The position numbers and the translations under genes were made by a program. The notes below the pieces were generated by a model. It saw only the letters and a program-made list of their open reading frames with translations. It made no database searches and was not told where the DNA came from. A stretch of DNA of 55,035 bases, taken from the NCBI GenBank assembly GCA_044376405.1, contig JBILKZ010000005.1, forward strand, positions 1 through 55,035, in the 5' to 3' direction. Source of the DNA: Pirellulales bacterium (GTDB lineage: Bacteria > Planctomycetota > Planctomycetia > Pirellulales > UBA1268). This document shows, piece after piece, positions 1,321 to 25,450 of this stretch. How positions within the stretch are numbered: position 1 is the stretch's first letter; each line of letters starts with the position of its first letter.

Positions 1321-4107
1321 TCAGTACGTCTTGCCGAGCGCCGCCTGTGCCGCTGCCAGTCGGGCGACCGGTAGCCTGAACGGCGAGCAGCTTACGTAGT
1401 CGAGCCCGATGTGGTGGCAGAACAGCACCGAGTGGGGATCGCCGCCGTGCTCTCCGCAGATGCCGAGCTTGATGTCTTTCCGCGTCTTGCGACCGCGCTC
1501 GACGGCGATCTGCATCAACTGACCAACGCCGGTGGCGTCGATCGACGCGAACGGGTTCGCCTTGAAGATGCCTTCCTCGGTGTACTTCTGCAGGAACGAC
1601 CCCATGTCGTCTCGGCTCATGCCGAGGCAGGTCTGGGTGAGGTCGTTGGTGCCGAACGAGAAGAACTCGGCCGTCTCCGCGATCTCGTCGGCGGTGAGGG
1701 CACCACGCGGGATCTCGATCATCGTGCCCACGAGATACTTGATCTTCTGTCCGGTTTCCTTCTGCACCAACTCGGCGGCCCGGTGCACGATCTCCACCTG
1801 ATTGTCGAGCTCCTTCTTGAAGCCGACGAGCGGGATCATGATCTCGGGCTTCACCTTGATGCCGGCCTTCTGCACCTTGGCCGCGGCCTCGAAGACCGCA
1901 CGGGCCTGCATCTCCGAGATCTCGGGGTAGCTGACGCCGAGGCGGCAGCCGCGGTGGCCGAGCATCGGATTGAACTCGTGCAAGGCGTGCACGCGAGCCT
2001 TGACCGTATCGATGGGCAGCTTCAGCTTCTTCGCCAAGTCGGCCTGTGCCTTCTCGTCGTGCGGCACGAATTCATGCAGCGGCGGGTCGAGGAAGCGGAT
2101 CGTGGCCGGTCGGCCATCGAGCGCCTTGAAGATGCCTTCGAAGTCGTCCCGCTGGTAGGGGAGCAGCTTGGCGAGTGCCTTGCGGCGGTCGTCCTCGTTC
2201 TCGGCGAGAATCATCTCCCGCATCGCGTCGATGCGGTCGCCCTCGAAGAACATGTGCTCGGTCCGCGTCAGGCCGATGCCCTCGGCACCAAAGGCAATCG
2301 CGTGACGAACCTGCTCCGGGGTGTCGGCATTGGTCCGTATGCCAAGTTTGCGGTACTTGTCGGCGAGCTTCATGATGAAGTCGTAATACTGAAAGACCTC
2401 CGAGTCGGCCGGCTTCATCGTCTTCGCGATCAACACCTGCTTGAGTTCGCTGTCGGCGGTCTTAATGGCACCGGCGAAGACCTCGCCCGTCGAGCCGTTG
2501 ATCGAGATCGCATCGCCTTCCTTGAGCTTCTGACCGGCACAGGTGAGCGTGCCCTTCGCGTAGTCGATCTGGACCGCACCGGCACCGGCGACGCAGACCT
2601 TGCCCATCTGCCGGGCCACGAGCGCTGCATGGCTCGAGACGCCGCCGCGGCTGGTGAGGATGCCCTCGGCGGCGATCATGCCGCGAAGATCCTCGGGGCT
2701 CGTCTCGACGCGGGCGAGCACCACTTTGATGCCCTTGTGGGCCAGTTCCTCGGCCTTGGCGGCCGTGAACACCAGCTGGCCGGTGGCGGCACCGGGACCA
2801 GCGGGCAGGCCCGTGGTCAGAAGCCGGGTGCTCTTCTTGGCGGCGGCATAGTCGGCCCGGTCGAAGATCGGAGCCAAGAGCTGCGAGAGCGCATCGGGAT
2901 CGGCCGACTGGATCGCGTGTTCCGGCGACATGAGCTTCTGCTTCACCATGTCGTGGGCGATCTTCACGTAGGCCAGCGCCGTCCGTTTGCCGTGCCGCGT
3001 CTGCAGCATGTAGAGCTTCTTCTTCTCGACCGTGAACTCGAAGTCCTGCACGTCGCCGAACTTCTTTTCGAGCGTCTGGCGGACCTTCTCCAGCTCCTTG
3101 TAGGTGCCGGAGAACATCGCTTCGTGCTTCATCTCGGCCACGGGCTTGGGCGTCCGCACGCCGGCGACGACGTCCTCGCCCTGGGCGTTGACCAGATATT
3201 CGCCGTAGAAGGTGTCTTCACCGGTGGCAGGGTCGCGAGTGAAGGCCACGCCCGTCGCGCAGTCGTCGCCCATGTTGCCAAACACCATGCTCTGCACGTT
3301 GACGGCGGTGCCCCACTCGTCGGGGATCTTGTACTTGCGGCGGTAGAGGATCGCCCGCTCGTTCATCCAGCTGCCGAAGACGGCGCCAACGGCGCCCATG
3401 AGTTGCTCGAACGGATCCTGCGGGAAGCCCTTGCCGGTCCGCTGCTTGATGAGCGTCAGATACCGCTTGATCAGCTCGCGGAGATGCTCTTCGGTGAGAT
3501 CGGTGTCGTTGTGGACGCCAAGCTGATGCTTGAGCCCCTCCATCGTCTCCTCGAAGGGATCGTGCTCGTTTTCGTGCCGCTTCTGCACTCCCATCACCAC
3601 GTCGCCGTACATCTGGATGAAGCGGCGGTAGGAGTCGTAGGCGAACCGGGGATTGCCGGTGGCGGCGGCGAGACCCTTCACGGTGTCGTCGTTCAGGCCC
3701 AGATTCAGGATCGTGTCCATCATGCCCGGCATGCTGTCACGGGCACCGGAACGAACGCTCACAAGCAGGGCGTTCTTGGGGTCGCCGAACTTCTTGCCCG
3801 TCTCCTTCTCCATGAGCTTCATGGCGGAGGCGACGTCGTCCTCGAGGTCCTTCGGGAACTTCTTGCCGTGCTTGTAGTAGTCGATGCAGACCTGCGTCGT
3901 GATCGTGAAGCCTGGGGGCACAGGCAGGCCGATCTTGGTCATCTGGGCGAGATTGGCCCCCTTGCCGCCGAGCAGGGCCTTCATCGTGCCGTCGCCGTCG
4001 CACTTTTTGGCGCCGAAGTAATAGATCATCTTGCCCGGCTTGCCGCTCTGCTTCCCGCTTTTGGTGGACGCATGCTTGGAGGACTTCTTTCCGTGAGTGG
4101 TGGCCAT
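1321..4107 (-). CDS. ppdK: Pyruvate, phosphate dikinase
   Basis: Track ORF 1321..4206. The family N-terminus is present ([45 protein letters not shown]). The phosphohistidine region ([16 protein letters not shown]) and C-terminal PEP-utilising region (TNDLTQ...CGEHGGDP) are also present. I chose the ATG at 4107 (MATTHGKK...). Alternatives are 4206 or 4029 (MIYYFG). Confidence 0.95.
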
Positions 4108-4287
4108 GGGCTGGTCGAAACCTTTCGTAGCGGGTCGGAGCGGGGAAAATGGATCCGGCGGATCGCACCGGGAAGCGAGGGAAACGCGGCCGCTTTGGGC
4201 CGTCAAACTCGCCAGACTCTAGTTGCGCGGGCGGGTACCGTCAACGAGCGTATTGAGGCGGCACTCACCCCCCCGGGACGCTAGAAT

Positions 4288-6825
4288 ATGGGATCGGGCC
4301 CTGCGTCTCCCCCGCCATCACCGCTGACCGTTACCATGCCGCGACCATCCTGGCCACTCAGCCGCCCCGCCTGCTGGTTGATGGCGGCTCTGGTGGTCCT
4401 CTGCAGTCTGGCCGCATGGCGGGGGGCGGAGGCGGCCCCAGGGACCGACAAAGCCCCCGACTTCACCCGCGACATCCGCCCCATCCTGTCGCATAACTGC
4501 TTCGCGTGCCACGGGCCCGACGAGCACGACCGCCGCGGGGGCCTGCGGCTCGACGACCGCGACGCAGCCACGGCCGAACTCGACAGCGGCAGCCGGGCCA
4601 TCGTCCCCGGCCGTCCGGACGAGAGCGAACTGATCGCCCGAATCCACGAGACCGACCCCGACACGGCCATGCCGCCACCCGAGAGCAACCATGTGCTCAC
4701 AGCGGCCCACAAGGAGACGCTCGCGAAGTGGATCGCCGCCGGCGCCCCCTACTCGCCACACTGGGCCTATGTGCCGCCGCGCGATCATACCCCGCCGGCC
4801 ATCCAGCGGGCCGATTGGCCGATCAACTGGATCGATGCCTTTGTCCTTGGGCGTCTGGAAGCTGAGGGACTGACGCCGGCGGCCGAGGCCGATCCGCGCA
4901 CGCTCCTGCGGAGGGTGACATTCGATCTGACGGGCCTGCCGCCGTCGCCGGCAGAGGTCGACGCCTACCTCGCCGACACCCGTCCTAATAGCTACATGTT
5001 ATTGCTAGACCGACTGCTCGCCTCGCCTGGGCATGCCGAGCGGTTGGCGGCCTGGTGGCTCGATCTCGTTCGCTATGCCGACACGGTCGGCTACCACGGC
5101 GATCAGGACCACAGCATCTCGCCCTATCGCGACTGGGTGATCAAGGCGTTTCTCGACAACATGCCGTTCGACCGGTTCACCGTGCTTCAACTCGCGGGCG
5201 ATCTCGTTGGCCCCGCCGGCAATGAACACACCGATGATCCGGTGCTCGCCAGTGCCTACAACCGGCTGCTGCAGACGACGCATGAAGGGGGACTGCAGCT
5301 GAAGGAGTATCGCGCGATCTACCAGGCCGACCGGATCCGTAACGTGTCGGGCGTGTGGATGGGGGCGACCGTCGGCTGCGCGCAGTGCCACGACCACAAG
5401 TATGACCCCTACACGGCCAAAGACTTCCACACGCTCGGCGCTTTCTTCGCCGACATCGACGACGAAAAGCATATGCAGAGGGGGGGTTTCGGCGGCCAGA
5501 ACCTCAACGCGCTGCCAACGAAGCGGGATCCCGAGGTGACGATCGTCGGCCCGTTCGACCGCACCAGGGCCTCCGAACTCGATGCCCTGATCCACTCGCT
5601 CGAAACCCAGCTGTCGCCGCTCGTGTTGCCACCGCGGGCCCAGCCCGAGGAGCCCGAAACTGAAAGCGTGGTCGCCAACCGCATCGAGCTCGATCGTCTG
5701 AAGTCGCAGCGAAAGCAGCTCGACCGGTCGTTGATGATCACCAGGCCGCTCGCGAAGCCACGCGACGTCCGCATCCTGCCCCGCGGCAACTGGATGGACG
5801 AGACCGGGCCGCTCGTCGAGCCGGCGGTTCCCGCCTTTCTCGGGAGCATCGGCGCACAAGGCAGGCCCAGCCGCGCCGATCTGGCCCGCTGGCTGGTCAC
5901 GCCTGTCGCCACCGGCGGCGCCGGTGACTTCACCGCCCGCGTGACCGCCAACCGGATCTGGGCCTTGTTCTTCGGCGCCGGGCTCTGCCGCAGCGCCGGC
6001 GACCTCGGTGGCCAGGGGGAACTGCCCGATCATCCCGAAGTGCTCGACCGCCTGGCACTCGAATTCTTGCGACAGGGGTGGGACGTGCGAAAGCTCATCC
6101 GCACGATCGTGACGAGCCGCACCTACCGCATGGCATCCACTGCTCCGGCCGACCTCCTCGCCCGCGATCCCGACAATCGGCTGCTTGCCCGGCAGGGCCG
6201 CTGGAGGCTGCCAGCCGAGGGCGTGCGCGACACGGCCCTCTTTGCCGGAGGGCTATTGGTTGAGCAACTCGGTGGCGCGAGCGTGCATCCCTACCAGCCG
6301 GCGGGCTACTACCGGCACTTGAACTTTCCGCAGCGGGAATACAAGGCCGATATCGACAGCCGCCAGTGGCGTCGCGGGCTCTACGTCCACTGGCAGAGGA
6401 TGTTTCTCCATCCGCAATTGCTCGCGTTCGACGCGCCCACCCGCGAGGAGTGCACCGCCGCCCGCATGAAGTCCAACACCCCGAAGGCCGCGCTCGTGCT
6501 GCTCAACGATCCGACTTTCATCGAGGCGGCGAGAAAACTCGCGGAACGCGCTGTCACGTCGGGCGGCACCGGCGACGACGAGCGGATCACGTTCCTCTGG
6601 AACAACGCGCTCTCCCGGCCGCCTTCGCCTGAGGAACTGGCTCTCGTGAAGGGCTTGCTCGATCGCCGCCGCGCCGAGTTCAAGGCCGATCCGAAAGCGG
6701 CGACCGAACTCCTCGCCGTCGGCATCGCGCCGCGCGACACGTCCTTGAACGAACCCGAACTTGCCGCGTGGACCGCCGCAGCCCGCGCCGTGCTCAACCT
6801 CCACGAGGCCATTTCGCGATACTAG
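4288..6825 (+). CDS. Planctomycete cytochrome-c domain / DUF1549 / DUF1553 protein (PSD1-type)
   Basis: FTRDIRPILSHNCFACHGPDEHDRRGGLRLD is a PSCyt-type CxxCH motif. WIDAFVLGRLEAEGLTPAAEADPRTLLRRVTFDLTGLPPSPAEV is DUF1549-like. CAQCHDHKYDPYTAKDFHTLGAFF is DUF1553-like. An alternative start at 4336 (MPRPSWPL...) immediately precedes a signal-peptide-like stretch. Confidence 0.9.
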   Translation: MGSGPASPPPSPLTVTMPRPSWPLSRPACWLMAALVVLCSLAAWRGAEAAPGTDKAPDFTRDIRPILSHNCFACHGPDEHDRRGGLRLDDRDAATAELDSGSRAIVPGRPDESELIARIHETDPDTAMPPPESNHVLTAAHKETLAKWIAAGAPYSPHWAYVPPRDHTPPAIQRADWPINWIDAFVLGRLEAEGLTPAAEADPRTLLRRVTFDLTGLPPSPAEVDAYLADTRPNSYMLLLDRLLASPGHAERLAAWWLDLVRYADTVGYHGDQDHSISPYRDWVIKAFLDNMPFDRFTVLQLAGDLVGPAGNEHTDDPVLASAYNRLLQTTHEGGLQLKEYRAIYQADRIRNVSGVWMGATVGCAQCHDHKYDPYTAKDFHTLGAFFADIDDEKHMQRGGFGGQNLNALPTKRDPEVTIVGPFDRTRASELDALIHSLETQLSPLVLPPRAQPEEPETESVVANRIELDRLKSQRKQLDRSLMITRPLAKPRDVRILPRGNWMDETGPLVEPAVPAFLGSIGAQGRPSRADLARWLVTPVATGGAGDFTARVTANRIWALFFGAGLCRSAGDLGGQGELPDHPEVLDRLALEFLRQGWDVRKLIRTIVTSRTYRMASTAPADLLARDPDNRLLARQGRWRLPAEGVRDTALFAGGLLVEQLGGASVHPYQPAGYYRHLNFPQREYKADIDSRQWRRGLYVHWQRMFLHPQLLAFDAPTREECTAARMKSNTPKAALVLLNDPTFIEAARKLAERAVTSGGTGDDERITFLWNNALSRPPSPEELALVKGLLDRRRAEFKADPKAATELLAVGIAPRDTSLNEPELAAWTAAARAVLNLHEAISRY

Positions 6826-6827
6826 CC

Positions 6828-8282
6828 ATGCACGACCCACTCACGATCCATCGCCGCACGTTCCTCGCCCGCTCGGGCCTCTCGCTCGGCGGTGCCGCGC
6901 TCTCCGGTCTGCTGGCCCGCGATGGGCTGGCGGCGGCGATCTCGGCCGCCGCCCGTACGGGCGGTGCAGCCGACCGGTATCTGGGCGCGGTCTCTCCGCT
7001 TCACCACCCGCCCAGGGCGAAGTCGGTGATCTTCCTCTGCCTCGCAGGCGGCCCGAGCCACCTGGAAACCTTCGACTATAAGCCGGTGCTCGAAAAGCTC
7101 GATGGCCAAGAGATGCCGGAGAGCGTGACGGCCGGCCAGCCGATCGCCCAGTTGCAGGGGCAGAAGCTCATCTGCCTGGGACCGCGAACGACCTTTACGC
7201 CGCGCGGCGCGAGCGGCACGCCCGTCAGCGATTTCTTTCCAGTGCTCGGCGGCCTGGTCGACAAGCTTGCAATCGTGCGAAGCATGGTGACCGAGCAGAT
7301 CAACCACGATCCCGCCCACACCTTCATGAACTGCGGCACCGCCCTCTCCGGCCGACCGAGCATGGGAGCCTGGGTGACCTATGGCCTCGGCAGCGAGGCC
7401 GATGACCTGCCAGGCTTCGTTGTCATGACGAGCAAGATGGGCCGCAATCCGCAGCCGATCGCGGCGAGGCAATGGCACTCGGGATTTCTACCGGGACAGT
7501 TCCAAGGGGTCGAGTTCGCCACCTCCGGGGCCCCTGTGCACTATGTCGACAATCCACCAGGCGTATCGAATGCCCACCAGCGGGACTTGATCGACACGGT
7601 CGCCGCGCTCGAACAGCATCGCCTCGTCACGCTGGCCGATCCCGAGATCGCGACTCGCGTGAAGCAGTACGAACTCGCATTCAAGATGCAGGCGAGCGTG
7701 CCGCAGCTCGCCGATCTCTCCGACGAGACGGCGGAAACGCTCGCCCTCTACGGCGCCGAGCCCGGCAAGGCGACCATCGGAACCAACTGCCTGATGGCAC
7801 GGCGGCTCGTGGAGCGTGGCGTGCGGTTCGTGCACCTCTACCACAGCGACTGGGACCACCACGGCGACATCGACAAATACATGAAAGAGATCTGTCCCCC
7901 GACCGATCGGGCGGCGGCGGCCTTGCTTGTCGATCTCGAACGCCGCGGCCTGCTCGATGAGACGCTCGTCGTGATCGGGGGCGAGTTCGGACGGACGCCG
8001 ATGGGGCAGGGGGGCAAGGGCACGATCGGCCGCGACCACCACATCAAGGGCTTCAGCATGGCCCTGGCGGGCGGGGGCATCAAAGGCGGCATCGTCCACG
8101 GCGCCACCGACGACTTCGGCTACAACGCCATTCAGGACGTCGTGCATGTCCGCGACCTGCACGCCACGATGCTCCATCTCCTCGGCATCGACCATGCCAG
8201 GTTCACGGTCGAATACCAGGGCCTCGATTCGAAGCTCACCGGCGTCGAGCCGGCGAAGCCGGTGAAGGCACTGTTTTCCTGA
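6828..8282 (+). CDS. DUF1501 (sulfatase-fold) protein with twin-arginine signal
   Basis: Trimmed from track ORF 6768..8282 to ATG 6828, 2 nt after the upstream TAG (6823-6825). The N-terminus is MHDPLTIHRRTFLARSGLSLGGAALSGLLA (Tat-like). DUF1501-like body: HLETFDYKP, NHDPAHTFMNCG, DHHGDI, GGEFGRTP, GRDHH. This is the classic partner of the DUF1553 gene upstream. Confidence 0.9.
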   Translation: MHDPLTIHRRTFLARSGLSLGGAALSGLLARDGLAAAISAAARTGGAADRYLGAVSPLHHPPRAKSVIFLCLAGGPSHLETFDYKPVLEKLDGQEMPESVTAGQPIAQLQGQKLICLGPRTTFTPRGASGTPVSDFFPVLGGLVDKLAIVRSMVTEQINHDPAHTFMNCGTALSGRPSMGAWVTYGLGSEADDLPGFVVMTSKMGRNPQPIAARQWHSGFLPGQFQGVEFATSGAPVHYVDNPPGVSNAHQRDLIDTVAALEQHRLVTLADPEIATRVKQYELAFKMQASVPQLADLSDETAETLALYGAEPGKATIGTNCLMARRLVERGVRFVHLYHSDWDHHGDIDKYMKEICPPTDRAAAALLVDLERRGLLDETLVVIGGEFGRTPMGQGGKGTIGRDHHIKGFSMALAGGGIKGGIVHGATDDFGYNAIQDVVHVRDLHATMLHLLGIDHARFTVEYQGLDSKLTGVEPAKPVKALFS

Positions 8283-8547: not shown

Positions 8548-11500
8548 TTAGTCGTGTCTGCCGAACCACTGCTCGCGGATGCGGTCCATCGTGCCATCCT
8601 CCCGCATCCGCAGGATCGCCGTGTTGAGCCGTTCGCGGAGCGGACCGCCGTTAGGCAGGCCCAAGCCGTAGTCGAAAGACTCGAAGATCGGACCGACGAG
8701 TTTGAGAACCTGACGGTCGGAACGGTTTAAGAGAAACATCATCTGCTGGTTCTCCCCCACCACCGCATCCAGCCCGCCCAGCCCCAACGCATCCAGTGCC
8801 TCGTTGAGCTTGGAATATTCTCTTACCACACCACCCCGACGCCGCACCTCCTTCACGGTCACTGCCGCCTCCTGGCAGCCGACCGTGCGACCGGTGAGAT
8901 CCTTGGGCCCGTGGATCTTTCCAGCCACCCGCTCCGCCGTGAGCGTGGCGGTGAGCACGCTTGTGAACGCCGCCAGGAGCATGATCCCGCCCACCATCCA
9001 GGCAAAAGCGATCGTGCGGCCAAGGCCGCTGGCGACGTGCTTGTTGTCACAGCCGCCGGCGACGACTGTCGAGGCGATCCACCAGATGGCCTCCCACATG
9101 CCCCGAGGATACTGCGGCGGGAATGATTCCGGGTTGCCCCGATGCTCGAACCACCAGAGCAAGTGCCCGGAGGCGAGCGCGAGCAGCAGAACGGTTCCCA
9201 AGAACTGGAGCAACTGCCACGAGAAGAGCGACCTGAAGGCCGACAGGAAGCCCGATGCCTCCTGCTGCCGCACCGCGACCCGCAAGCCGGAATGCAAGAT
9301 GGGATGGGTGAGATCGAACACCCGTTCCCGCTCCTCGGTGATCGCGAGGGGTCCTAGCGCCACATCGATCTCGCCAGCGATCAACGTGTCCAACAGGTGT
9401 TTGAACGTGTCGACGCGAACGAAGTCGGTCTCCATGCCGAGCCGCTTCTCAAGATCTCGCCAGACATCGATGATCACGCCGCTGGGTTGATCGCCATCCC
9501 ATTCGACCACCGAGGCGAGCGGGACGACGCCCACCCGGAGCCGCTCCGGCACCGCTGCAGCTGGTGTCGACTCGGCGGCGACGACGCCACTGGCACAACC
9601 AGATCCCACCGCCACGAGTCCCACAATGCACAGGGCCGAGGCCACGCCGGCACGCCAGCCGCCGTTGCCCCCGGCAGCATGCACGCGAACCGTCCACCAC
9701 GTCATGGCGGCCCCCGTCGCCACGCTCGCCAGCGCCGCCGCCACGGCCCACGTCGGCAGGCTCAGTCCGGTGGAGGCAGCCGTGGCAGCCGGAACCGACT
9801 CCGCCGAACCAGACAAGCCGCCAGCCAGCCAGAGCATCGCCAGCGGCATCGAATTGTGGGCCGCATGACAGGCGATCGCCGGGAGTAGGCTCCGCGTCGC
9901 CACGGTCAGCACGCCGGCCACGAGCCCCAGGGCGAATGTCTGCGGCATTCGCTCGGGTAGCAGGTGGAAGACCGCAAAACAGGCGGCCTGGGCCACCACG
10001 CCCGCCACAAGCCGTCCACGGCTGGGCCAGGCTCCTACGAGTGCCGACTGCACCCAACCGCGAAACAGCAATTCCTCACCGATGGCCGGGAGTAGGGCGA
10101 TGAGTGCCCACGATAACCAGACCGGCTTGTCCTGCATCATGCCGATCAGTTTTTCAGCCAGACTTTTCGCCTCCGCCGACACGTGCGTTCCCCGAACGGC
10201 CAGCAGCACCGCGGCCCCGAGCACGAAGAGCCCGCCCCCCACCAGCACCGCCCCGACCACACTCGCCACCCTCCGCCAGGCCACCCACCTGCCGGCCACC
10301 ACCGGCCATCGAAGGCCGAACGTGCAGCGAAGATCAACCCGCTGCCAGGCCAGCAGCAGGGCCAGCGGCATGACCACTGCGGCGGCCTGCTGCACGGGAA
10401 TCGCCAGCGCGAAATCGGTCGGCGCGATGCCTTGCACGTACCACAGTCCAGACAGGCCGATGATCAGCGCCGTGAGCCCCTGCGCCACGGAAGGTCGGCG
10501 ACGGCGGGCGGGCCGCGACAGCAGTCCACTGGCCACGTCGGGCCCACGGAACAAGACTTCCTCGTCGGTGAGCATCGCCGCCGTCCATTGCAGCAGGAGC
10601 CAGACGATCATGGCGGACGAGGTGAGCGAGGCGGCCAGCGGCACGGCGAGCCGCTGGAACACACCGACGGCCGCCGGTCGGTCTGGAAGCCCGACGGATG
10701 TCGGCTGGCGCGGGCCATCCACGGCGGCCGCGTGGTGCGGCGCCGGTCGCGCGTCGGATTCGAGCGTCGCCCTGGCCAACGCCACCTGGCCGGCAAACGG
10801 CACGATCGGCAGGATCGTGCTGCTGCCCAGATCACCGACCACGCCGGCACCCGCCAGGGCGCTGGCGAAGAGCAGCACCGGCGTGAGCGTATTCTGTGCT
10901 TCCTTGCCGCTCTTCGAAGCCGTGGTGACGGCGAGGCACATCGCCGCCGCCAGCGCCGACAGGCCGATGAAAGCCAACACCGAGACTCCCAGCACGATCG
11001 GGAGATGCCCCTCAGGCAGAAGTTTTTCGCCCTGTGGCAGAAATCGGAGCGATACCGCCGTTGTGAGGGCGATCGAGACGACATTGGCCGCCAGCGTCGC
11101 CAAAGCCACCGCCCAGACCGCGAGAAACTTCCCCGCCACGATGTCGATCGCCGCGCACGGGGCGATCAGCAGCGTCTCGATCGTGCCACGCTCCTTTTCG
11201 CCGGCGATCGCGTCGATGGCCGGGTAGAACGCGCCGGTCATCGTGAGCACGGCCAGCAGCACGAACACGCCCCCGGCCACGGTCGGAAGGATGCTTCGGC
11301 TGGAGATCGCACCCGGCACATTGATCTTTCCGGTGAACCGTATCGCCACCGGATTGAGCAGGCTATCCGGCAGTCCGGCCCGGTCGATCCGCCGCCGCCT
11401 CGCGTCGTCGGCGAGACCACGCATGACAGCGGTGAACTGCTCCTGCGTCCGCGGCGGCAGCACCCGCGCGGCTGGTCCCTGCGCCTCGATCGACAGCGTG

Positions 11501-11973
11501 CCCTCGCCATCGAGCGCGTCGACCACACGCTCCGGCACGTCGATCCACAGGTCGGCCTGGCCTGCGTCGACGGCCGCGAGAGCCGCATTGGGAGCCGCGA
11601 ACCCGAAGGCAATCGAGGCGGGCCAGTCGGCTCGGGCGCGGCCATCCTCGGGCTTGCGCAGTCCGTTCACGCGGGCGGCGAAGGCTTGCGCATCTTTGGG
11701 TGAGCCCGACAGCACCACGGCAAGATCGGTGGGCGCCGTTCGGGTATCGATGTCGGTCAGCGCCGTCCGCACGCCGAGCGCGCTCGCGAGTGCGAGGATG
11801 GGATACATCGCCATCGGCAACAGGAGCGTGACGAACAGCGTGCGGCGGTCGCGAATGAATTCGAGCAGGTCGCGACGGGCCAGCGCCAGCCTGGCCTTGG
11901 CTCGTAGGCTGCGATTCTCATGCCCCCGCGCACTGAGCCCTCCGTCGCCAGCAGGAACGTCCCCGGCATTCAT
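8548..11973 (-). CDS. Fusion protein: NatB-like ABC-2 permease + CPBP (CAAX/Abi) intramembrane protease + periplasmic-binding-protein/ion-channel (GluR0-like) module
   Basis: Single 1141-codon frame with no internal stop. Residues ~25-475 are a multi-TM ABC-2 permease (RRDLLEFIRDRRTLFVTLLLPMAMYPIL ... AGEKERGTIETLL). Residues ~495-720 carry the CPBP motifs EELLFRG (nt 10057-10077), FAVFH and HAAHN. Residues ~810-1141 are SBP type-3 lobe 1 (LRVGVVPL...IDVALGPLAITEERERVFDLTHP), then two TM helices around a pore-like WWIASTVVAGGCDNKH, then lobe 2 (...GLGLPNGGPLRERLNTAILRMREDGTMDRIREQWFG). The start overlaps the upstream ATPase stop in ATGA (11970-11973). Confidence 0.85.
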   Translation of the reverse strand: MNAGDVPAGDGGLSARGHENRSLRAKARLALARRDLLEFIRDRRTLFVTLLLPMAMYPILALASALGVRTALTDIDTRTAPTDLAVVLSGSPKDAQAFAARVNGLRKPEDGRARADWPASIAFGFAAPNAALAAVDAGQADLWIDVPERVVDALDGEGTLSIEAQGPAARVLPPRTQEQFTAVMRGLADDARRRRIDRAGLPDSLLNPVAIRFTGKINVPGAISSRSILPTVAGGVFVLLAVLTMTGAFYPAIDAIAGEKERGTIETLLIAPCAAIDIVAGKFLAVWAVALATLAANVVSIALTTAVSLRFLPQGEKLLPEGHLPIVLGVSVLAFIGLSALAAAMCLAVTTASKSGKEAQNTLTPVLLFASALAGAGVVGDLGSSTILPIVPFAGQVALARATLESDARPAPHHAAAVDGPRQPTSVGLPDRPAAVGVFQRLAVPLAASLTSSAMIVWLLLQWTAAMLTDEEVLFRGPDVASGLLSRPARRRRPSVAQGLTALIIGLSGLWYVQGIAPTDFALAIPVQQAAAVVMPLALLLAWQRVDLRCTFGLRWPVVAGRWVAWRRVASVVGAVLVGGGLFVLGAAVLLAVRGTHVSAEAKSLAEKLIGMMQDKPVWLSWALIALLPAIGEELLFRGWVQSALVGAWPSRGRLVAGVVAQAACFAVFHLLPERMPQTFALGLVAGVLTVATRSLLPAIACHAAHNSMPLAMLWLAGGLSGSAESVPAATAASTGLSLPTWAVAAALASVATGAAMTWWTVRVHAAGGNGGWRAGVASALCIVGLVAVGSGCASGVVAAESTPAAAVPERLRVGVVPLASVVEWDGDQPSGVIIDVWRDLEKRLGMETDFVRVDTFKHLLDTLIAGEIDVALGPLAITEERERVFDLTHPILHSGLRVAVRQQEASGFLSAFRSLFSWQLLQFLGTVLLLALASGHLLWWFEHRGNPESFPPQYPRGMWEAIWWIASTVVAGGCDNKHVASGLGRTIAFAWMVGGIMLLAAFTSVLTATLTAERVAGKIHGPKDLTGRTVGCQEAAVTVKEVRRRGGVVREYSKLNEALDALGLGGLDAVVGENQQMMFLLNRSDRQVLKLVGPIFESFDYGLGLPNGGPLRERLNTAILRMREDGTMDRIREQWFGRHD

Positions 11974-12746
11974 GATGGCGCTCCCTGGGCAGGCGACGTA
12001 CCGGGCGTCTGGTCGAGCGCCGCAAAAAAAGCCTCTTCAAGATTTCCGTAGGGCCCGAGGATCTCTGTCGGCGTCCCCTGCGCGACGACGCGTCCACCAT
12101 GGAGAATTACGAATCGGTCGCAGCGATGCTCGATCTCATGAAGCCGATGCGTGGAGAGCAGGATCGCCCTTCCGTCACCGCGAAACCCGTCGAGCAGGTG
12201 GAGCAGATCGCGGGCCCCCACGACGTCGAGGGCATTGGTGGGTTCATCGAGTACGAGCGCCGGCGGGTCGTGGATCAGTGCCCGGGCCAGCGAGACCCTC
12301 TGCCGCTGCCCTGACGACAGCCGGCCGGCGGGCCGATCCGCGAACTCGGCCAGCCCGAGCGCCCGCACGAGTGCATCGATCCGCAGCACGAGCGGCCCCT
12401 CATCGAGGCCGTGCAGTCGGCCGTATGACCGCATGATTTCGAGTGCCGTGAGCCGGTCGGGAACGCCCGTCGTCGCCGACACATAGCCCAGGTGCCGCCG
12501 CGCCCCCAAGGGATCGGCCACCACGTCGCAGCCACCCACGCGGGCCGTGCCCGACGTGGGCTTCAGCAGCGTGGCCAGCACCCGCAGCGTGGTCGTCTTC
12601 CCGGCGCCGTTGGCACCGAGGAGGCCGACCATCTCGCCCGGCGCCACGGAGAGCGAAACACCGTCCACAGCCCGCACGACGCTGCCGTCGCTGGCCCGAT
12701 AGTGCTTCACGAGATCGATCACCTCGATCATTCCGCCGTCTCCCAC
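11970..12746 (-). CDS. ABC transporter ATP-binding protein (NatA-like)
   Basis: Walker A GLLGANGAGKTTT, signature LSSGQRQRVSLARAL, Walker B LVLDEPTNALD. The start is GTG at 12746 or ATG at 12731 (MIEVIDLVKHY). Confidence 0.92.
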   Translation of the reverse strand: MGDGGMIEVIDLVKHYRASDGSVVRAVDGVSLSVAPGEMVGLLGANGAGKTTTLRVLATLLKPTSGTARVGGCDVVADPLGARRHLGYVSATTGVPDRLTALEIMRSYGRLHGLDEGPLVLRIDALVRALGLAEFADRPAGRLSSGQRQRVSLARALIHDPPALVLDEPTNALDVVGARDLLHLLDGFRGDGRAILLSTHRLHEIEHRCDRFVILHGGRVVAQGTPTEILGPYGNLEEAFFAALDQTPGTSPAQGAPS

Positions 12747-12755: not shown

Positions 12756-13589
12756 TCAGATCTCCACGCTTGGGGGAAACTGCCGATAGTCGAGAATCTT
12801 CGCCGCTGCCACGAGCAGCACTGCCGCCAGGCAGACGACCGCCGCGACCTGCACCCAGGCCGGCTGCGGATCGATGAGTAGTTGCATCTCCACCGGCAAC
12901 TTCTGTCGCCAGCCCATCCACTCGACCAGCAGGCTCCGCAGCCGCAGGCTCACCGTGGCCTGATTGACGACCGCAGGAATGAACCCTGCCAGATACTCGA
13001 CCACGAGCGCCACTGCCACACTCGCCACGAGGGCCCGCTTCGGCAGGATCACGGCGGGCAGGGCGAAGAGCGCCGCCCGCCCCAGCGTCGAGAGCACCAC
13101 GAGCGCCGCCAGCATGCCGACCAGCGGCAGCGGCTTCGGTACGCGTGCCACCAGCACCGCGAGGAATGCCGCCAGGATCGCCACGATGCTCGTCCAGGTG
13201 ACGGCCGCCAGATAGGTTCCCAGGAGCAGTGCACGCCGACCACCAGGCCGGACCGAGACATGGATCCAGGTGCCACGTTCCAGTTCGTCGGCCACCACCG
13301 GACAGATGGTGACGAGCAGGCCAAGCATGCAGACCGCCTCCGGCACGAGCGCATAGATCATGGTGACGGCGAGGTCGCGGTCGAGGCCCTCCGCCGCGGT
13401 CCGCCGCACCGCCATCATCACCGCCGCGGGAAAGATCACGCCGAGCCCCGCCAGCAGGAGACGCTGGCGCGAGATCAGCCGTCCGATCTGAAAGCCCGCG
13501 ACCGCCAACGTCGAACCGAGCAGGGAGTAGCGGAGCGGTTCATCTGCCTGGTCCGAAACATCTGTGTGTCCCGAAAGAGGAACGCTCAT
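12756..13589 (-). CDS. ABC-2-type membrane permease (family not assigned)
   Basis: 277 aa, about six hydrophobic helices. The start overlaps the upstream ATPase stop in ATGA (13586-13589). Confidence 0.75.
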   Translation of the reverse strand: MSVPLSGHTDVSDQADEPLRYSLLGSTLAVAGFQIGRLISRQRLLLAGLGVIFPAAVMMAVRRTAAEGLDRDLAVTMIYALVPEAVCMLGLLVTICPVVADELERGTWIHVSVRPGGRRALLLGTYLAAVTWTSIVAILAAFLAVLVARVPKPLPLVGMLAALVVLSTLGRAALFALPAVILPKRALVASVAVALVVEYLAGFIPAVVNQATVSLRLRSLLVEWMGWRQKLPVEMQLLIDPQPAWVQVAAVVCLAAVLLVAAAKILDYRQFPPSVEI

Positions 13590-14539
13590 GATCCCACCCC
13601 ACGATGAAGCCGCACGAGGCGGCCGAAGATGCCCTCGAGCGACCGGTCGCCGGCCGCTACCTCCACGATGGCGAACCGATTCTCGACCGCAACGTGCGCG
13701 ATCCGTTCGGCCAACACCCTCGGCTGCCGTGTGGCCACCACGAGCAGATCATCCCCTTCGAACCGCACGCTCTCCGCACCGGGCGTCGCACACACCGCCT
13801 CCGCGAGCCGCCGCGGGGCATCGCACCGAATGCGCACCTCCGACGGCATGGCATCCACCATGTCTCGGATCTCGCCGGCCGTGCCGCTGGCGACGAGACG
13901 CCCGCCCAGGATGACTGCCAACCCCGCGTGCAATGCCTCCACCTCGTGGAGCAGGTGACTGGCCACGATCAGCGTGCGTGGCCTGCCTCCCACGGCATCC
14001 GCCGACACAGCCCAGTGCCGCACGAGGCCGACAAGGTCGTGCCGGGCCACCGGATCGAGTCCGTCGAAGGGTTCGTCGAGTACGAGGAGATCGGGGTCGT
14101 GCGCCATGGCACCTGCCAACTTCGCCCGCTGTCGCAGCCCCTTGGAAAGGGTGGAGAGCGGCCGGTCCATCGCCTCACCCAGCCCTACACGGTCGAGTTC
14201 CCGATCCGCCCGCTCGGCCGCGGCATCCCGTCCGAAGCCGGAGAGCCGCACGAGATACCGAACCCACTCTCGTGGTGTCGCCCGCCGTTCCAAGAGGTCG
14301 GCGGCGGGGCAGAACCCGATTCGCCGCAGCACCCGCGGATTGGCAAACGGCCGTTCGCCAAACACGCGGACCTGCCCCATCGTGGGCCGCAACTGGCCGG
14401 TGATGAGTCCCAGGAGCGTTGTCTTGCCGGCACCATTGGGGCCGAGGAGACCGTGGGCACCGCTCCCCAACTCCACCGTCACGTCGTTGACGCCGATCAC
14501 CGACCCGAAGACCTTCGTGACGTGTGTGAGGGAGAGCAT
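13586..14539 (-). CDS. ABC transporter ATP-binding protein with C-terminal extension
   Basis: Walker A GLLGPNGAGKTTL, signature LSKGLRQRAKLAGAM, Walker B LLVLDEPFDGLD. About 90 aa of extra C-terminal domain. Confidence 0.92.
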   Translation of the reverse strand: MLSLTHVTKVFGSVIGVNDVTVELGSGAHGLLGPNGAGKTTLLGLITGQLRPTMGQVRVFGERPFANPRVLRRIGFCPAADLLERRATPREWVRYLVRLSGFGRDAAAERADRELDRVGLGEAMDRPLSTLSKGLRQRAKLAGAMAHDPDLLVLDEPFDGLDPVARHDLVGLVRHWAVSADAVGGRPRTLIVASHLLHEVEALHAGLAVILGGRLVASGTAGEIRDMVDAMPSEVRIRCDAPRRLAEAVCATPGAESVRFEGDDLLVVATRQPRVLAERIAHVAVENRFAIVEVAAGDRSLEGIFGRLVRLHRGVGS

Positions 14540-14605
14540 GGACGTTTCAGGTGAGGCGGGAGTGAGGATGGGGGGCGAAAGCCGGGAATTTCATCCCTGA
14601 GCCGT

Positions 14606-15832
14606 TCACGCCCTCGTGGGAGCGTCGATCCTGTTGAGCAGCACGAACACGGCGACGATCGATACCAGCGCCAGCGACACCAGCGACGGCACGACCGCCT
14701 GAGGTCTTGTCTCGATGCCAAAGATCCAGGCCTGCATGACCCCGAGTGCATGGTAGGGCGAAAGCCAGGCCCAGCGGTCGATCACCGGATCCATGCCGGC
14801 GGCCTTTGAAAGCCAACGAAACCGACGACGCAGACTGCCGTCAGGATACCCGCCAGCCGCCGATGACTGCCGTCCCGTCACGGAGCGGTCATCCTCGAGG
14901 TCACCAAACGGATCCTCGCCCCACGATCTAGCCCGGCCCTCTCGCTGGCCGCCACCCGACGCATCGACTACCTCGGTCTGTCGGGAGGCCGCCACCAGGT
15001 CGGCGGTCGTGAGCGTCGAATGGGCGATCCAGCACGCGGCCCACGTCGCAAACCAGGCGAAGCTCGCGATCCTGCTCTCCGCCGTGGCCGAGGAATAGGC
15101 CAACGCCAACAGCACCGTCGGCACGGCGAGCACGACGCTCGCCGCGACGGCCTTGAGCGGCAGATCCCAAGTGTCGACAGCCACCCATACGCTCGGGCTC
15201 ACCAGCACCCCCATCAGCCACAATGCCAGCGCAGGCAGCACCGTGATGGCCGCGACGAGCACACCGAGAATGGCCGCCTTGCCGAGGATGTATTCGAGCC
15301 GCCCCACGGGCCTTGTGAAGTAGACGAGCCATGCCTTCGCCCGCAGATCGCGTGACACGAGTGTCGGCGCCACCAACCCGATGACCACGGCGAGGAGCAC
15401 CGCCTGCGGCACCCGCATGAAGGCCAGGAGGAGTCGTGACCAGACCACCCGTCGCGTATCGGCGATGTCGACCTTGGGATCCACGGACGACTCGCCGGCT
15501 GGCCGCACGGCCCGCGTGCCCTTGGCGTATCCGGGTGTCCGGCCCAGCGTGTCGGCCAGCACCGTGCCCAGCATTCCCACACCGTCGAGATTGCGGCCGG
15601 CGCGGGCCGCTTCACGCATGTTCACGAGCCGGCCCTCGTCGATCGCCTGCTCGAACGCGAAGAAGCTCATCGCGAACACGAGCGCAGGGCTCCACGCGAA
15701 AAACACCATGCGGCGGAGCCAGCGGCTCGTCCACGCCAGCTTGATGCCCGTCAGCGCGATCACGCCGATCGCCGCACCGGAGCCGCGGCGTTCGCCACGC
15801 CATGGCCGATAGCCCACGTCATGGAGCGGCAT
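14606..15832 (-). CDS. ABC-2-type membrane permease (family not assigned)
   Basis: Track ORF 14606..16180 trimmed to ATG 15832 (MPLHDVGYRPWRGERRG...). The longer version would run antisense-free through the 3' end of the upstream ATPase. The chosen start overlaps that ATPase by 14 nt. Multi-TM throughout. Confidence 0.75.
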   Translation of the reverse strand: MPLHDVGYRPWRGERRGSGAAIGVIALTGIKLAWTSRWLRRMVFFAWSPALVFAMSFFAFEQAIDEGRLVNMREAARAGRNLDGVGMLGTVLADTLGRTPGYAKGTRAVRPAGESSVDPKVDIADTRRVVWSRLLLAFMRVPQAVLLAVVIGLVAPTLVSRDLRAKAWLVYFTRPVGRLEYILGKAAILGVLVAAITVLPALALWLMGVLVSPSVWVAVDTWDLPLKAVAASVVLAVPTVLLALAYSSATAESRIASFAWFATWAACWIAHSTLTTADLVAASRQTEVVDASGGGQREGRARSWGEDPFGDLEDDRSVTGRQSSAAGGYPDGSLRRRFRWLSKAAGMDPVIDRWAWLSPYHALGVMQAWIFGIETRPQAVVPSLVSLALVSIVAVFVLLNRIDAPTRA

Positions 15833-16847
15833 GAGCCACCTCCTGCCCGGAGGCCCCGCGGCTCGTCTCATCTGCGGCCTCGGCGTCGCGGAGCGTCTGG
15901 ACGAAGACCTCCTCGAGCGGCCTGGCCGCCGGCTCGAGCGAGCGGATGACCACGCCTGCGTCATGGGCACTCGCCCAGACCAGACCGATCCGATCGGCCC
16001 CCGGCGGTTCGAGCAAAATCGCGCCGGTGGCCCCAGACTCATCACCGTCGACCATCCGGGCGGGGAGGCCGCGGACCGTGAGCAGCCGTGCGAGATCGGC
16101 GAGCGGGCCGTCACCTTCCAGCCGGTGTGCGGGGGTCGCGGGCCGGGTGAGCTGTTCAATCGCACCGGTGAGTCGCACACGACCGCGGGCGAGCACGATC
16201 ACGCGATCGCAGATCGACTGCACGTCGGGGAGCACGTGCGTGGAGACCAGCACGGTCTTGCCGTGGTCGCGGGCGAGCGTGACGAGCCGGCCGAGCATCG
16301 CCCGCCGTTCAAGCGGATCGAGGCCGTTGGTCGGCTCATCGAGGATCACCATCCGCGGATCGTGGACGATCGCCGCGGCGAAGGCCACCTTCTGCCGCGT
16401 GCCGACCGACAGCGTCTCCACGGGCCGATAGCGTTCCTGTCCAGCATCGCACCAATCGAGCACCTCGTGGGCCCTGCGCAGGCTCTCGGTGCCGGGCAGT
16501 CCACACAGCCGCGCCGCATAGCGCACCATCTCGACGCCGGAGAGGCCTGGCACGGCGCATTCGTCCTCGGGCACGACGCCGAGCAGCGACCGCACCCGCC
16601 GCGGCTCGCTGGCGGGATCGAGACCGAACACGCGGACGCTCCCTGCGACCAGGCGGACGAGTCCGAGGATCGCCCGCACGAGCGTGCTCTTGCCTGCGCC
16701 GTTGGGGCCCACGAGCCCGGTGACGCCCGGCGTAACCTCAAGCGACACGCCGTCGAGCACCGTGCGTCCGCCGTAGCGTTTCACGACGCCATCCAGCCGC
16801 ACGGGGAGATCGTCCAGCAGGAGTTCATCCCGAGGAGGGTTGCCCAC
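15819..16847 (-). CDS. ABC transporter ATP-binding protein with C-terminal extension
   Basis: Walker A GLVGPNGAGKSTL, signature LSVGTRQKVAFAAAI, Walker B MVILDEPTNGLD. GTG start at 16847, 58 nt downstream of frr. Confidence 0.9.
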   Translation of the reverse strand: MGNPPRDELLLDDLPVRLDGVVKRYGGRTVLDGVSLEVTPGVTGLVGPNGAGKSTLVRAILGLVRLVAGSVRVFGLDPASEPRRVRSLLGVVPEDECAVPGLSGVEMVRYAARLCGLPGTESLRRAHEVLDWCDAGQERYRPVETLSVGTRQKVAFAAAIVHDPRMVILDEPTNGLDPLERRAMLGRLVTLARDHGKTVLVSTHVLPDVQSICDRVIVLARGRVRLTGAIEQLTRPATPAHRLEGDGPLADLARLLTVRGLPARMVDGDESGATGAILLEPPGADRIGLVWASAHDAGVVIRSLEPAARPLEEVFVQTLRDAEAADETSRGASGQEVAHAAP

Positions 16848-16905
16848 TATGTCTGCATCCTACCGGGGTGACTTCATCCTGCATGGCGCGGAACCCGTCC
16901 GCCGC

Positions 16906-17466
16906 TCACTGCTCCATGACTTCCGCTTCCTTGGCCTTCGCGAGATCGCCGACCTTGGCCTCGTACTTCTTCGTCAGCTCCTGCACCTCCTCCTTGGTCG
17001 AGTCGCAGTCGTCCTCGGTGAGGGTGCCGTCGCCCTTCTCGGTGTCGGCCGCCTTGTTGCCGTCGCGGCGGACGTTGCGAATCGCCACACGGGCCTCTTC
17101 GCCCAGTTCCTTGATGCGGGCGGTCATCTTCCGTCGCACGTCGGTGGAGAGGGCCGGGATCGTGATGCGGATGACGCGACCGTCGCTCTGCGGATTGAGA
17201 CCGAGATCGCTGGCCTGAATCGCCTTCTCGATGTCCTTGATGGTGCCGGGATCGAAGGGGCGGACGACGATCTGGTTGGGTTCGGGGGCGCCGACGCTGG
17301 CGAGTGCCTTGATCGGCGTGGGCGATCCATACACCTCCACCCGGAGCGTGTCGACGAGACCGGGATTGGCCCGCCCCGTGCGGATGCCGGTGAGGGCGTG
17401 GCGGAACACATCCACGGCCTTCTCCATCCGTTCCTCAGCGTCGAGCAGAATATCGTCGGCCGGCAT
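16906..17466 (-). CDS. frr: Ribosome recycling factor
   Basis: 186 aa: MPADDILLDAEERMEKAVDVFRHALTGIRTGRANPGLVDTLRVEVYGSPTPIKALASV...RNVRRDGNK. Full-length family match by eye. Confidence 0.95.
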   Translation of the reverse strand: MPADDILLDAEERMEKAVDVFRHALTGIRTGRANPGLVDTLRVEVYGSPTPIKALASVGAPEPNQIVVRPFDPGTIKDIEKAIQASDLGLNPQSDGRVIRITIPALSTDVRRKMTARIKELGEEARVAIRNVRRDGNKAADTEKGDGTLTEDDCDSTKEEVQELTKKYEAKVGDLAKAKEAEVMEQ

Positions 17467-17733
17467 GGGGGCTTTTCCTCCTCAAAGTGTCGCTGCCCTC
17501 GGCAGCGTCGCCGAGAATCCTAATTCTGGCAGGCCGATCCCCCGGGAGGCAAGCGACGTCGCAGGGCTGCTGGTCGTTTCGCGAACATCGTGGCCATCGG
17601 ACCCGTATGGATGGGATGCTGCGGCCTCGTTTGCGGTCGGCATCCGCGCGAACTAGCCTTCAGGCTAGCCCGTTGTGTCTCGCGAGCGGCCTGCCTGCCG
17701 CCACTCCTGGCGTCCACACCACCAGCCATTCCC

Positions 17734-20526: not shown

Positions 20527-20571
20527 CGCAACTCAGGCGTGAGAGCAGGCTTTCCCGACCCATGCCCGCCT

Positions 20572-23276: not shown

Positions 23277-23314
23277 GGTGGTGTTCGAAACGGACCGGGG
23301 TGTGGGTGCTGGTT

Positions 23315-24157: not shown

Positions 24158-24323
24158 GGTCTATCTCCTTTATGAATCTGCGGTTGTCTGAAGACTGGAT
24201 GTTTCGAGTGAGTGCCGTGCATCGACGGCGCCGATGCCGACCACGTAGGAACGGCACCGCGAGGCATCAACCGGACCCGAACCAAGACCATTGCCCACGG
24301 CATCCGTGTGCTGGCCACTCAGA

Positions 24324-25142: not shown

Positions 25143-25450
25143 GCTCTCGTACTCTCGCTAAGGGGAATGGGACGGGGTGAAATGGAACAGGTCGCACTTG
25201 GCGGGGCCCATGGCCACGCAGCCGAGCACCGCAAACTATCGGCTTTTTCGGCCCCGTGTCAACGCACACGCGGCATCCCCGGGCGCCGCCGCGAACCTGG
25301 GGCCGCCTGCCGGCCCCGGTCCGCAGCCATGGCTTGAATCCGTCCATCCGCCCACACTAGACTCCCGATCGCGGCTTTTTCCGCGTTTCCAGCCCACTTC
25401 GACCCATTCCCTCCCCTCATAGAACCCGGCAGTCCCTGCCGGAAGCACCC

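Follow-up and report, generated by a model that had tools for sequence, protein, structure and literature searches.

A planctomycete protein family joining an ABC-2 permease and a CPBP protease to an ionotropic glutamate receptor-like module

Why should a pore of the ionotropic glutamate receptor (iGluR) type stand at the end of a bacterial transporter and protease? The question is raised by one open reading frame (ORF) in a 55,035 nt stretch of DNA (hereafter the window; 66% G+C) from a Pirellulales bacterium, contig JBILKZ010000005.1. The ORF begins with ATG, runs for 1141 codons without interruption on the minus strand (8548..11973), and encodes an ABC-2 permease, a CPBP intramembrane protease, and an iGluR-like clamshell with its pore. 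The ATG shares 4 nt (ATGA) with the TGA stop of an ABC ATPase gene immediately upstream. The fused architecture is not unique to the query genome; it forms a family of more than 100 database clusters that carry only automatic annotation. The reading preferred here, to which a probability of roughly 0.55 is given, is that of a conserved inner-membrane fusion of freshwater Pirellulales/Planctomycetaceae in which the iGluR-like part is a constitutive partner of the ABC-2/CPBP machine. A preliminary description of the locus had reported the uninterrupted frame without naming its strand, the ATGA coupling to the ATPase gene, three modules in one polypeptide, and the positions of EELLFRG (nt 10057-10077), FAVFH, HAAHN, and ALCIVGLVAVGSGC (residues 780-793). 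The frame and the 4-nt overlap are as described, the motif positions are all correct on the minus strand, and the three modules are recovered by Pfam, NCBIfam, the AlphaFold2 model, and Foldseek.

Whether such a frame is real cannot be read from its length, because long chance ORFs are common in a window of 66% G+C; a 506-codon ORF lies on the opposite strand and overlaps the region of the fused gene. Among 5.8 billion clustered proteins, a search found 788 relatives; of these, the best 120 clusters were examined. Full-length proteins (1057-1185 residues; 44-95% identical to the query) make up 110 of these clusters, drawn from ENA, JGI, NCBI, and Logan assemblies and from independent Pirellulales and Planctomycetaceae assemblies. 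Nearly all share the same Pfam set, with two lacking a recorded Lig_chan match. Where a database gives them a name, it is either 'transporter substrate-binding domain-containing protein' or else 'polar amino acid transport system substrate-binding protein', in metagenome-assembled genomes (MAGs) of Planctomycetia or Planctomycetaceae. Codon alignments with homologues 95%, 90%, and 79% identical to the query, from three samples, contain no gaps or gaps of whole codons only, and the substitutions fall mainly at third codon positions in all segments. The frame is accepted as real because of the hidden Markov model (HMM) matches, the more than 110 full-length homologues, and the dominance of third-position substitutions in every module and across both junctions.

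The permease module consists of an N-terminal amphipathic helix, a first transmembrane (TM) helix, a periplasmic alpha/beta domain of ~150 residues (~79-222), and helices TM2-TM6, with a signature, FYPAIDAIAGEKERGTIETLL, that is invariant among homologues. It is matched by ABC2_membrane_2 (PF12679) over residues 29-372 (6e-15) and by ABC2_membrane_3 (PF12698; 2e-11), both above the gathering scores. A six-TM ABC2_membrane fold with a cognate ATPase gene on its 5' side places the module among the type-V permeases, and the amphipathic helix and separate ATPase are likewise shared with the type-V transporters NosDFY, ABCH-9C, ABCG2, and KpsMT. Residues 1-795 were modeled separately with AlphaFold2 at a predicted local distance difference test (pLDDT) score of 76. 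The structures matched by this model in Foldseek are ABCH-9C, NosY, ABCG2, ABCA1, KpsM, and 3cni, at scores that are weak for solved type-V transporters (E 3e-4 to 1e-2), with a TM-score of up to 0.52 on the target for NosY. The entry 3cni is a periplasmic domain, solved on its own, from a Thermotoga ABC-2 transporter, and the large domain between TM1 and TM2 resembles it. Sequence comparison with solved structures found relatives for the C-terminal third only and none for the N-terminal two thirds. The label 'NatB-like', used in the preliminary description, or 'Na+ efflux pump' occurs only among automatic JGI names at the level of COG, and the profile matches are to generic ABC-2 models only.

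The second module contains about eight TM helices and matches the Rce1-like/CPBP family (PF02517) at residues 618-709 (8e-19, above the gathering score). The three motifs of the family, EExxxR, FxxxH, and HxxxN/D, are all present, and their catalytic residues are invariant over 55 homologous sequences of 45-95% identity, the set on which invariance is judged throughout. From these residues, the protease is probably active. A fold search of the PDB with the N-terminal model listed only ABC-2 transporters and no Rce1 structure in its top 50, so the CPBP assignment rests on the HMMs and the motifs. A further motif, DEEVLFRGPD, resembles the first CPBP motif (EExxxR) yet lies outside the protease core. 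An internal duplication of the CPBP domain was considered as the source of this second EExLFRG motif (at residue 471) and was rejected, with BLASTP of residues 440-600 against 601-770 giving E = 0.23. The motif is probably part of the ABC-2 domain, in its C-terminal tail; a related motif, REEVLFRE, follows TM6 in a true member of the NCBIfam equivalog family NF041647 (ABC_perm_CPBP; locus L042).

The preliminary description had referred to fusions of ABC-2 permeases with CPBP proteases as an annotated class, and NF041647 ('ABC transporter permease subunit/CPBP intramembrane protease') is that class, with the permease followed by the CPBP domain in one chain and with no iGluR module. It is also the best NCBIfam model for the fused protein, at 349.5 bits against a cut-off of 435. 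Residues 1-795 score 351.5 bits and unfused relatives 352-368 bits, in contrast with 610 bits for L042, a protein from a Planctomycetia MAG with an ABC ATPase gene just upstream. One unfused relative (L032) aligns with the model from end to end (positions 2-634 of 636). Judged by these scores (350-368 bits for the query clade against the 435-bit cut-off), the clade is homologous to NF041647 and lies outside the curated family as a divergent sister group. No experimental study of the NF041647 family was found in the literature searched.

In the C-terminal third, Pfam places SBP_bac_3 on residues 826-1138 (8.5e-23, above the gathering score) and Lig_chan (PF00060) on residues 928-1037 (8e-12; 45.6 bits against a gathering score of 30.8), with a match to Lig_chan-Glu_bd (857-904) below its gathering score. 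The substrate-binding profile is split by the channel profile, which confirms a layout with the two clamshell halves S1 and S2 around a pore. The model sets S1 at 811-902 and S2 at 1023-1137 and has channel helices at 919-943, 957-972, and 983-1012, the last being an M3-like helix that carries FTSVLTATLTAER. Helix M4 is absent, the ORF ending three residues after the last S2 helix. In a sequence search of the PDB, the best match is 2pyy, the ligand-binding core of a Nostoc iGluR homologue (E = 1e-22). Plant GLR3.4 is aligned continuously over 852-1138, the membrane part included, and hundreds of AMPA/kainate chains come next. The best 50 Foldseek matches of the full-length model are all ligand-binding domain-transmembrane domain (LBD-TMD) chains of AMPA/kainate receptors (E ~1e-15). 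The boundaries that the preliminary description gave for S1, M1-P-M2, and S2 are essentially right, and the substrate-binding and pore module that it named is recovered by structure prediction. Among the profiles it listed, the ABC2_membrane families, PF02517, SBP_bac_3, and PF00060 match, and Ion_trans_2 (PF07885) has no match in the fused protein in the Pfam search. Its term 'GluR0-like' holds for the layout without M4 and fails for the pore, since STVVAGGCDNK does not contain the T-x-V-G-Y-G K+ filter of GluR0 in the strict sense.

Stand-alone relatives fall into two pore groups, one with the K+ filter TTVGYGD and one with GGC(D/E)NK, and the query belongs to the second. Invariant columns account for 23 of the 98 residues of the channel segment, compared with 11 of 94 in S1 and 14 of 129 in S2. 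In the pore segment, 31 synonymous codon differences stand against seven non-synonymous ones in one homologue (P0002) and 23 against three in another (P0019). The channel segment is under the strongest purifying selection within the C-terminal module. In the clamshell, T879 and E883 of S1 and E1074 of S2, the acidic residue for the alpha-amino group, are invariant, and R882, the arginine for the alpha-carboxylate, is kept in at least 90% of homologues. Aligned with 32 stand-alone bacterial homologues, R882 falls in a universally conserved arginine column and E1074 stands where the others carry aspartate; the two columns also align with R and D of 2pyy. The same alignment shows GCQEAAV in the query clade where S2 usually has its G-S/T-T/S loop.

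The C-terminal module is widespread as a protein of its own. Among 1.84 billion representatives it has 7220 relatives at E <= 1e-3, of which 560 reach E <= 1e-30; among the matches listed, almost all are stand-alone proteins of 350-390 residues, and only two representatives, of more than 1000 residues, are of the fused kind. A 2362-residue protein with five iGluR-like stretches (P0127) was set aside as a relative, as its ANF_receptor and multiple Lig_chan domains look eukaryote-type and may reflect a merged gene model. Another class of iGluR-like fusion was noticed in six proteins of 600-720 residues (P0139, P0150, P0151, P0189, P0248, and P0257). In these, an N-terminal OpuAC (glycine-betaine-type) domain precedes an S1-pore-S2 unit with a K+ filter, an arrangement that recalls the amino-terminal domain of eukaryotic receptors.

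Alignment-averaged hydropathy and the helices of the model, taken together, give 15 TM helices before S1, with TM1-TM6 in the ABC-2 part, TM7-TM14 in the CPBP part, and TM15 in the linker. With the N-terminus inside, S1 and S2 are placed in the periplasm, as the preliminary description had supposed, because 15 helices precede S1; M1, the re-entrant pore loop, and the M3-like helix are then oriented as in iGluRs. The density of lysine and arginine in short loops is 13% on the side assigned to the cytoplasm and 7% on the side assigned to the periplasm. In relatives with separate genes, the ABC-2/CPBP protein stops after TM14 with a basic tail, which fits the same topology.

The linker between the protease and S1 is the most variable part of the protein and is modeled with pLDDT below 50. 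It consists of a basic loop, the hydrophobic TM15 (~774-792), and a c-region with a small-x-small plus acidic motif, and ALCIVGLVAVGSGC lies within it. This signal-peptide-like layout, with 12-18 hydrophobic residues after the basic loop, is kept in the linkers of all fused homologues. The small-x-small plus acidic motif (for example, VAAAE, SAADP, AWAAE, or LRAQE) occurs in 97% of 111 linkers, compared with 63% when the linkers are shuffled and 26% in other windows of the same proteins, and its strict form, A.A[ADEQ][ED], in 22% compared with 3% and 1%. Judged from this layout, the linker helix is a retained ('fossil') Sec signal peptide of a once separate iGluR-like gene. The preliminary description had seen a lipobox-like helix here, an interpretation that is not upheld. 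A lipoprotein lipobox at residues 790-793 was rejected since G-S-G-C is a poor lipobox and is not conserved among the 111 homologues, in which a strict lipobox, [LVI][ASTVI][GAS]C, is found in five and a relaxed one in 33, and C793 is not a conserved column. Cysteine is enriched 3.6-fold in the linker (2.2% compared with 0.6% elsewhere) and present there in 86 of the 111 homologues, in most of them not as part of a proper lipobox.

How the fusion relates to separate genes was addressed in a scan of one genome per GTDB species, which gave 34 close loci (L008-L041), classified by tblastn and stop-codon walking. All are MAGs labeled Pirellulales, Planctomycetaceae, or Planctomycetia, apart from a few with labels that appear to be wrong. 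Loci of the Pirellulales type are filed under Candidatus Kuenenia (L011, L016, L017, L034, and L039) and Chitinophagaceae (L021 and L037), and it is the organism labels or binning of these seven contigs that look wrong. Both the fused and the split state, for which the preliminary description had suggested a survey of relatives, are present, and so is a third. The fused state is represented by eight complete genes and two that stay in frame to the contig end. Seven loci are split, with an ABC-2/CPBP gene of ~750-790 residues followed by an iGluR-like gene of ~375 residues in another frame, and in five of the seven the candidate iGluR-like start overlaps the ABC-2/CPBP stop. Eight loci carry the ABC-2/CPBP gene with no iGluR-like match in at least 1.8 kb of downstream sequence. 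Two loci are ambiguous, with disrupted frames, and the others are cut by contig ends and uninformative. In the two ambiguous loci (L020, 8015-8744; L041, 8082-9261), a stop or frame change lies inside or before the iGluR-like part, and these may be pseudogenes or assembly errors.

The split iGluR-like proteins start with ordinary signal peptides, for example MMQLLRRRSAWTAVWTFSVVMAAAGAWA/DE in L018. The fused gene arose by in-frame joining of two adjacent, translationally coupled genes. In neighbor-joining trees of either half, which are rough and indicative only, the fused, split, and absent states are interspersed, so that fusion, fission, or loss took place more than once; in its C-terminal part, the query clade lies with split forms and not with the other fused clades. 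The occurrence of the two proteins as one chain or as adjacent genes is a 'Rosetta stone' pattern, on the strength of which the iGluR-like and ABC-2/CPBP proteins very probably act together.

In the preferred reading, the upstream ATPase would presumably energize the six-TM type-V (NosY/ABCG-like) permease, and TM15, the fossil signal peptide, brings the chain back to the periplasm. The C-terminal third is a complete prokaryotic iGluR subunit without M4 and with a non-K+ GGC(D/E)NK pore. By analogy with known receptors, the iGluR-like parts would form an amino-acid-gated, non-K+-selective cation pore as a tetramer, possibly a dimer of dimers set between two ABC dimers. Such a pore would be held in a fixed complex with the ATP-driven type-V permease and the glutamic intramembrane protease, and the binding of an amino-acid-like ligand in the periplasm would be linked with ion flux, and possibly with ATP-driven transport or proteolysis as well. 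Several points weigh against this reading. ABC-2 permeases act as dimers and iGluR pores as tetramers, an awkward stoichiometry. The N-terminal machine does not need the iGluR part, because in eight related species the locus contains the ABC-2/CPBP gene and no iGluR gene. Outside the clade, the most closely related stand-alone proteins (P0124, 45% identical; P0125, 38%) have no adjoining ABC-2/CPBP genes. The ligand may not be glutamate, since S2 is without the usual G-S/T-T/S contacts, and may not be an amino acid at all. The full-length AlphaFold2 model, built with 55 homologues (mean pLDDT 74; predicted TM-score 0.42), is unreliable in its inter-domain arrangement, given that score and the linker pLDDT, and the carriers found are all uncultured MAGs or metagenome contigs, many of the MAGs coming from a lake series.

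Other explanations share much of this evidence. The chain might be a polyprotein in which signal peptidase I or the neighboring CPBP domain cuts after the linker and so releases an iGluR-like protein like that made from split genes; the fusion would then only secure 1:1 co-expression and co-insertion. Such maturation is a tentative possibility. The n-h-c signal-peptide layout is kept in all fused homologues despite the hypervariable linker, the linker motifs exceed their shuffled and background frequencies, and split orthologues have classical signal peptides (e.g., ...AAGAWA/DE); in addition, the Bradyrhizobium FbcH protein, a cytochrome b/c1 precursor, is cut at an internal signal sequence. 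Like FbcH, the fused gene holds two membrane proteins in one frame with a signal-peptide-like segment between them, cleavage here being a hypothesis only. The motif counts, however, are not independent, as the sequences are related, the AxA matches are inflated by alanine-rich composition, and the data are explained just as well by a signal anchor that is not cleaved. A non-conducting module that serves as a ligand sensor and allosterically switches the ABC-2 transporter, the CPBP protease, or both is unlikely, though it would remove the mismatch between dimer and tetramer and agree with the atypical ligand pocket. Fusion to enzymatic or transport modules is the usual layout of sensors, and high conservation of TM segments could mark an interface in place of a pore. 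In this protein, what is conserved is exactly the set of elements that line the pore, namely the loop WW..ST..GGCDNK and, in M3, the motif FTS.LTATLTAE, and the same pore form is found in stand-alone relatives of ~360-390 residues that have no partner to regulate.

Two further explanations, uptake by an SBP-dependent importer and an assembly artefact, can in effect be dismissed. In the former, which is very improbable, SBP_bac_3 would be a tethered substrate-binding domain feeding an ABC importer, as in GlnPQ. It would account for the automatic names of the 'polar amino acid transport system substrate-binding protein' kind and for the matches to SBP_bac_3 and GlnH-type models. The permease, however, has the ABC-2/type-V exporter fold and not that of a type-I importer, with no BPD_transp_1 match, and the substrate-binding domain is interrupted by a Lig_chan pore above the gathering threshold in a module that matches receptor LBD-TMD structures. 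Annotations of iGluR homologues as ABC amino-acid transporters were deemed errors by Ger et al. 2010 (PMC2950845). That the long frame is peculiar to the query contig, as the product of misassembly, an indel, or the loss of a stop, is scarcely credible; spurious long ORFs do arise in high-GC DNA and two relatives (L020 and L041) have disrupted C-terminal frames, but the frame is kept in at least 110 full-length homologue clusters from four sources of assemblies and in the close homologues from three samples, with third-position-dominated substitutions. A stronger form of the preferred reading, in which the clamshell and pore belong to an ATP-driven ABC-2 transporter/protease as an integral subunit that regulates or conducts, with a variant in which a polyprotein is matured at the internal signal peptide, is considered doubtful. 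If true, it would describe a ligand-gated transporter-protease-channel machine with a coupling logic that is not known from iGluRs or from ABC transporters, and it would provide the first obligate partner identified for a bacterial glutamate-receptor homologue.

Compared with known receptors, the C-terminal module shares with the prokaryotic iGluRs (Synechocystis GluR0, slr1257; the Nostoc punctiforme GluR0 LBD, 2pyy) the order S1-M1-P-M2-S2 without M4, an arginine in S1, and an acidic residue in S2, the latter being glutamate as in animal iGluRs and not the aspartate of prokaryotic homologues. The prokaryotic iGluRs are free-standing and have a cleaved signal peptide, whereas the module here makes up the last third of a chain of 1141 residues. 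Like the eukaryotic iGluRs (AMPA/kainate; plant GLR3.4, 7lzh), it has the LBD and membrane fold, with continuous alignment through M1, P, and M3; unlike them, it has no amino-terminal domain of the eukaryotic kind and no M4, at ~20% sequence identity. The N-terminal extension of the fused protein is a membrane transporter/protease, in contrast with the soluble LIVBP-like domain of eukaryotic iGluRs. In an alignment with GluA2, GGCD resembles QQGCD of the AMPA receptor and FTSVLTATLTAER resembles SYTANLAAFLTVER, and WWFEHRGNPESF of the fused protein resembles plant VWILEHRFNQEF. Unlike GluR0, the fused protein has no K+ filter, and in the scheme of Ger et al. 2010 (PMC2950845) its pore matches the non-K+ 'Group 2'; those authors reported an ABC-transporter domain in none of their Group 1 or Group 2 proteins.

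The modules are each of known kinds and the ABC-2/CPBP fusion is a curated family; its extension by an iGluR module, fused or operonic, appears to be undescribed, no paper on it having been found in the full-text literature searched. The preliminary description, whose author had not seen this combination before, agrees with the search. Physiological roles of bacterial iGluR homologues are almost unknown, and a 2026 study of Synechocystis GluR0 (PMC13099474), which included complementation of E. coli deficient in K+ uptake, calls its own result the first direct evidence for such a role. In the lineage described here, a receptor-like subunit is bound genetically to an ABC-2 permease/CPBP protease with its ATPase, in some species by fusion and in others as adjacent genes with a stop and start that overlap or almost meet, a classic signature of physical or functional partnership. 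The family provides testable hypotheses for Group-2-type bacterial iGluRs, for ABC_perm_CPBP fusions, and for CPBP proteases beyond bacteriocin immunity and protein sorting. It also provides a case from nature in which an iGluR pore is attached to a large membrane module at the position of the eukaryotic amino-terminal domain, and it corrects the database name 'polar amino acid transport system substrate-binding protein' for its members.

Table 1. Features of the fused protein and of the genes around it (coordinates refer to the window)
Feature	Residues	Coordinates	Strand	Basis or remark
Fused ABC-2 permease/CPBP protease/iGluR-like gene		8548..11973	-	1141 codons plus stop; profile matches, full-length homologues
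ABC-2 (type V) permease module	27-469	10567..11895	-	Pfam, invariant columns, AlphaFold2, Foldseek
DEEVLFRGPD motif	470-479	10537..10566	-	Invariant, cytoplasmic, directly after TM6
CPBP (Rce1-like) glutamic intramembrane protease module	496-763	9685..10488	-	PF02517, NCBIfam Mrt/CPBP models, helices
CPBP motif 1, EELLFRG	633-639	10057..10077	-	E633, E634, R638 invariant
CPBP motif 2, FAVFH	666-670	9964..9978	-	F666, H670 invariant
CPBP motif 3, HAAHN	703-707	9853..9867	-	H703, N707 invariant
Linker	764-811	9541..9684	-	Hypervariable; low pLDDT
S1 half of clamshell	812-905	9259..9540	-	Carries GPLAITEERE
Channel segment	906-1012	8938..9258	-	Pre-M1, M1 919-943, pore 957-978, M3-like helix 983-1012
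Pore loop, STVVAGGCDNK	968-978	9040..9072	-	S968, G974, C975, K978 invariant
S2 half of clamshell	1013-1141	8551..8937	-	Invariant E1074 in AVVGEN
ABC ATPase (ATPase 3)	258 residues in all	11970..12746	-	Presumed energizing subunit of the fused protein
277-residue protein		12756-13589	-	Upstream gene; no Pfam match
ABC ATPase 2		13586-14539	-	Upstream gene
ABC-2 permease 1		ends at 14606	-	Upstream gene
ABC ATPase 1		15819-16847	-	Upstream gene
frr		16906-17466	-	Upstream gene
PSCyt1/PSCyt2/PSD1 gene, then DUF1501 gene		4288-8282	+	Convergent with the fused gene; Pfam

The fused gene closes a co-oriented run of frr, ATPase 1, permease 1, ATPase 2, the 277-residue protein, ATPase 3, and the fused gene itself. 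This gene order is kept in relatives down to 45% identity, and in two relatives examined (L004 and L006) rpsB, tsf, and pyrH lie further upstream. The constant core among relatives comprises frr, ATPase 3, and the ABC-2/CPBP gene, the ATPase gene being kept directly 5' in all relatives with upstream sequence examined. Some relatives are without the first two ABC pairs, whatever their iGluR state, and a link between the iGluR part and these extra pairs was rejected, as the two show no correlation. The 277-residue protein has no match in Pfam, NCBIfam, or PADLOC; its gene is translationally coupled to ATPase 2, it is 61-82% identical in relatives, and it is presumably an unrecognized ABC-2-type permease. 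Three ABC ATPase-permease pairs thus stand in tandem directly 3' of frr (12756-17466 on the minus strand, together with ATPase 3 and the fused gene). An anti-phage defense (Abi) function was rejected, as the fused protein has no PADLOC match and the ATPase matches generic ABC-ATPase models only. Placement in a defense island was likewise rejected, the locus adjoining frr and, further upstream in the two relatives, rpsB, tsf, and pyrH, and not defense genes.

No Rfam families or tRNA genes were found in the window and no terminator at the 3' end of the fused gene; the single terminator-like site (8260-8273, plus strand) lies within the end of the convergent gene. Six ORFs of 344-978 codons have no Pfam match at E <= 1e-3: 1411-4284 (+), 17590-20526 (+), 20498-22648 (-), 22647-23681 (+), 24291-25337 (+), and 26005-27090 (-). 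Given the G+C-rich window, some of them may not be genes. Genes downstream of the fused gene vary among relatives. The PSCyt/PSD1 and DUF1501 pair, a planctomycete hallmark, adjoins the fused gene in some of them too.

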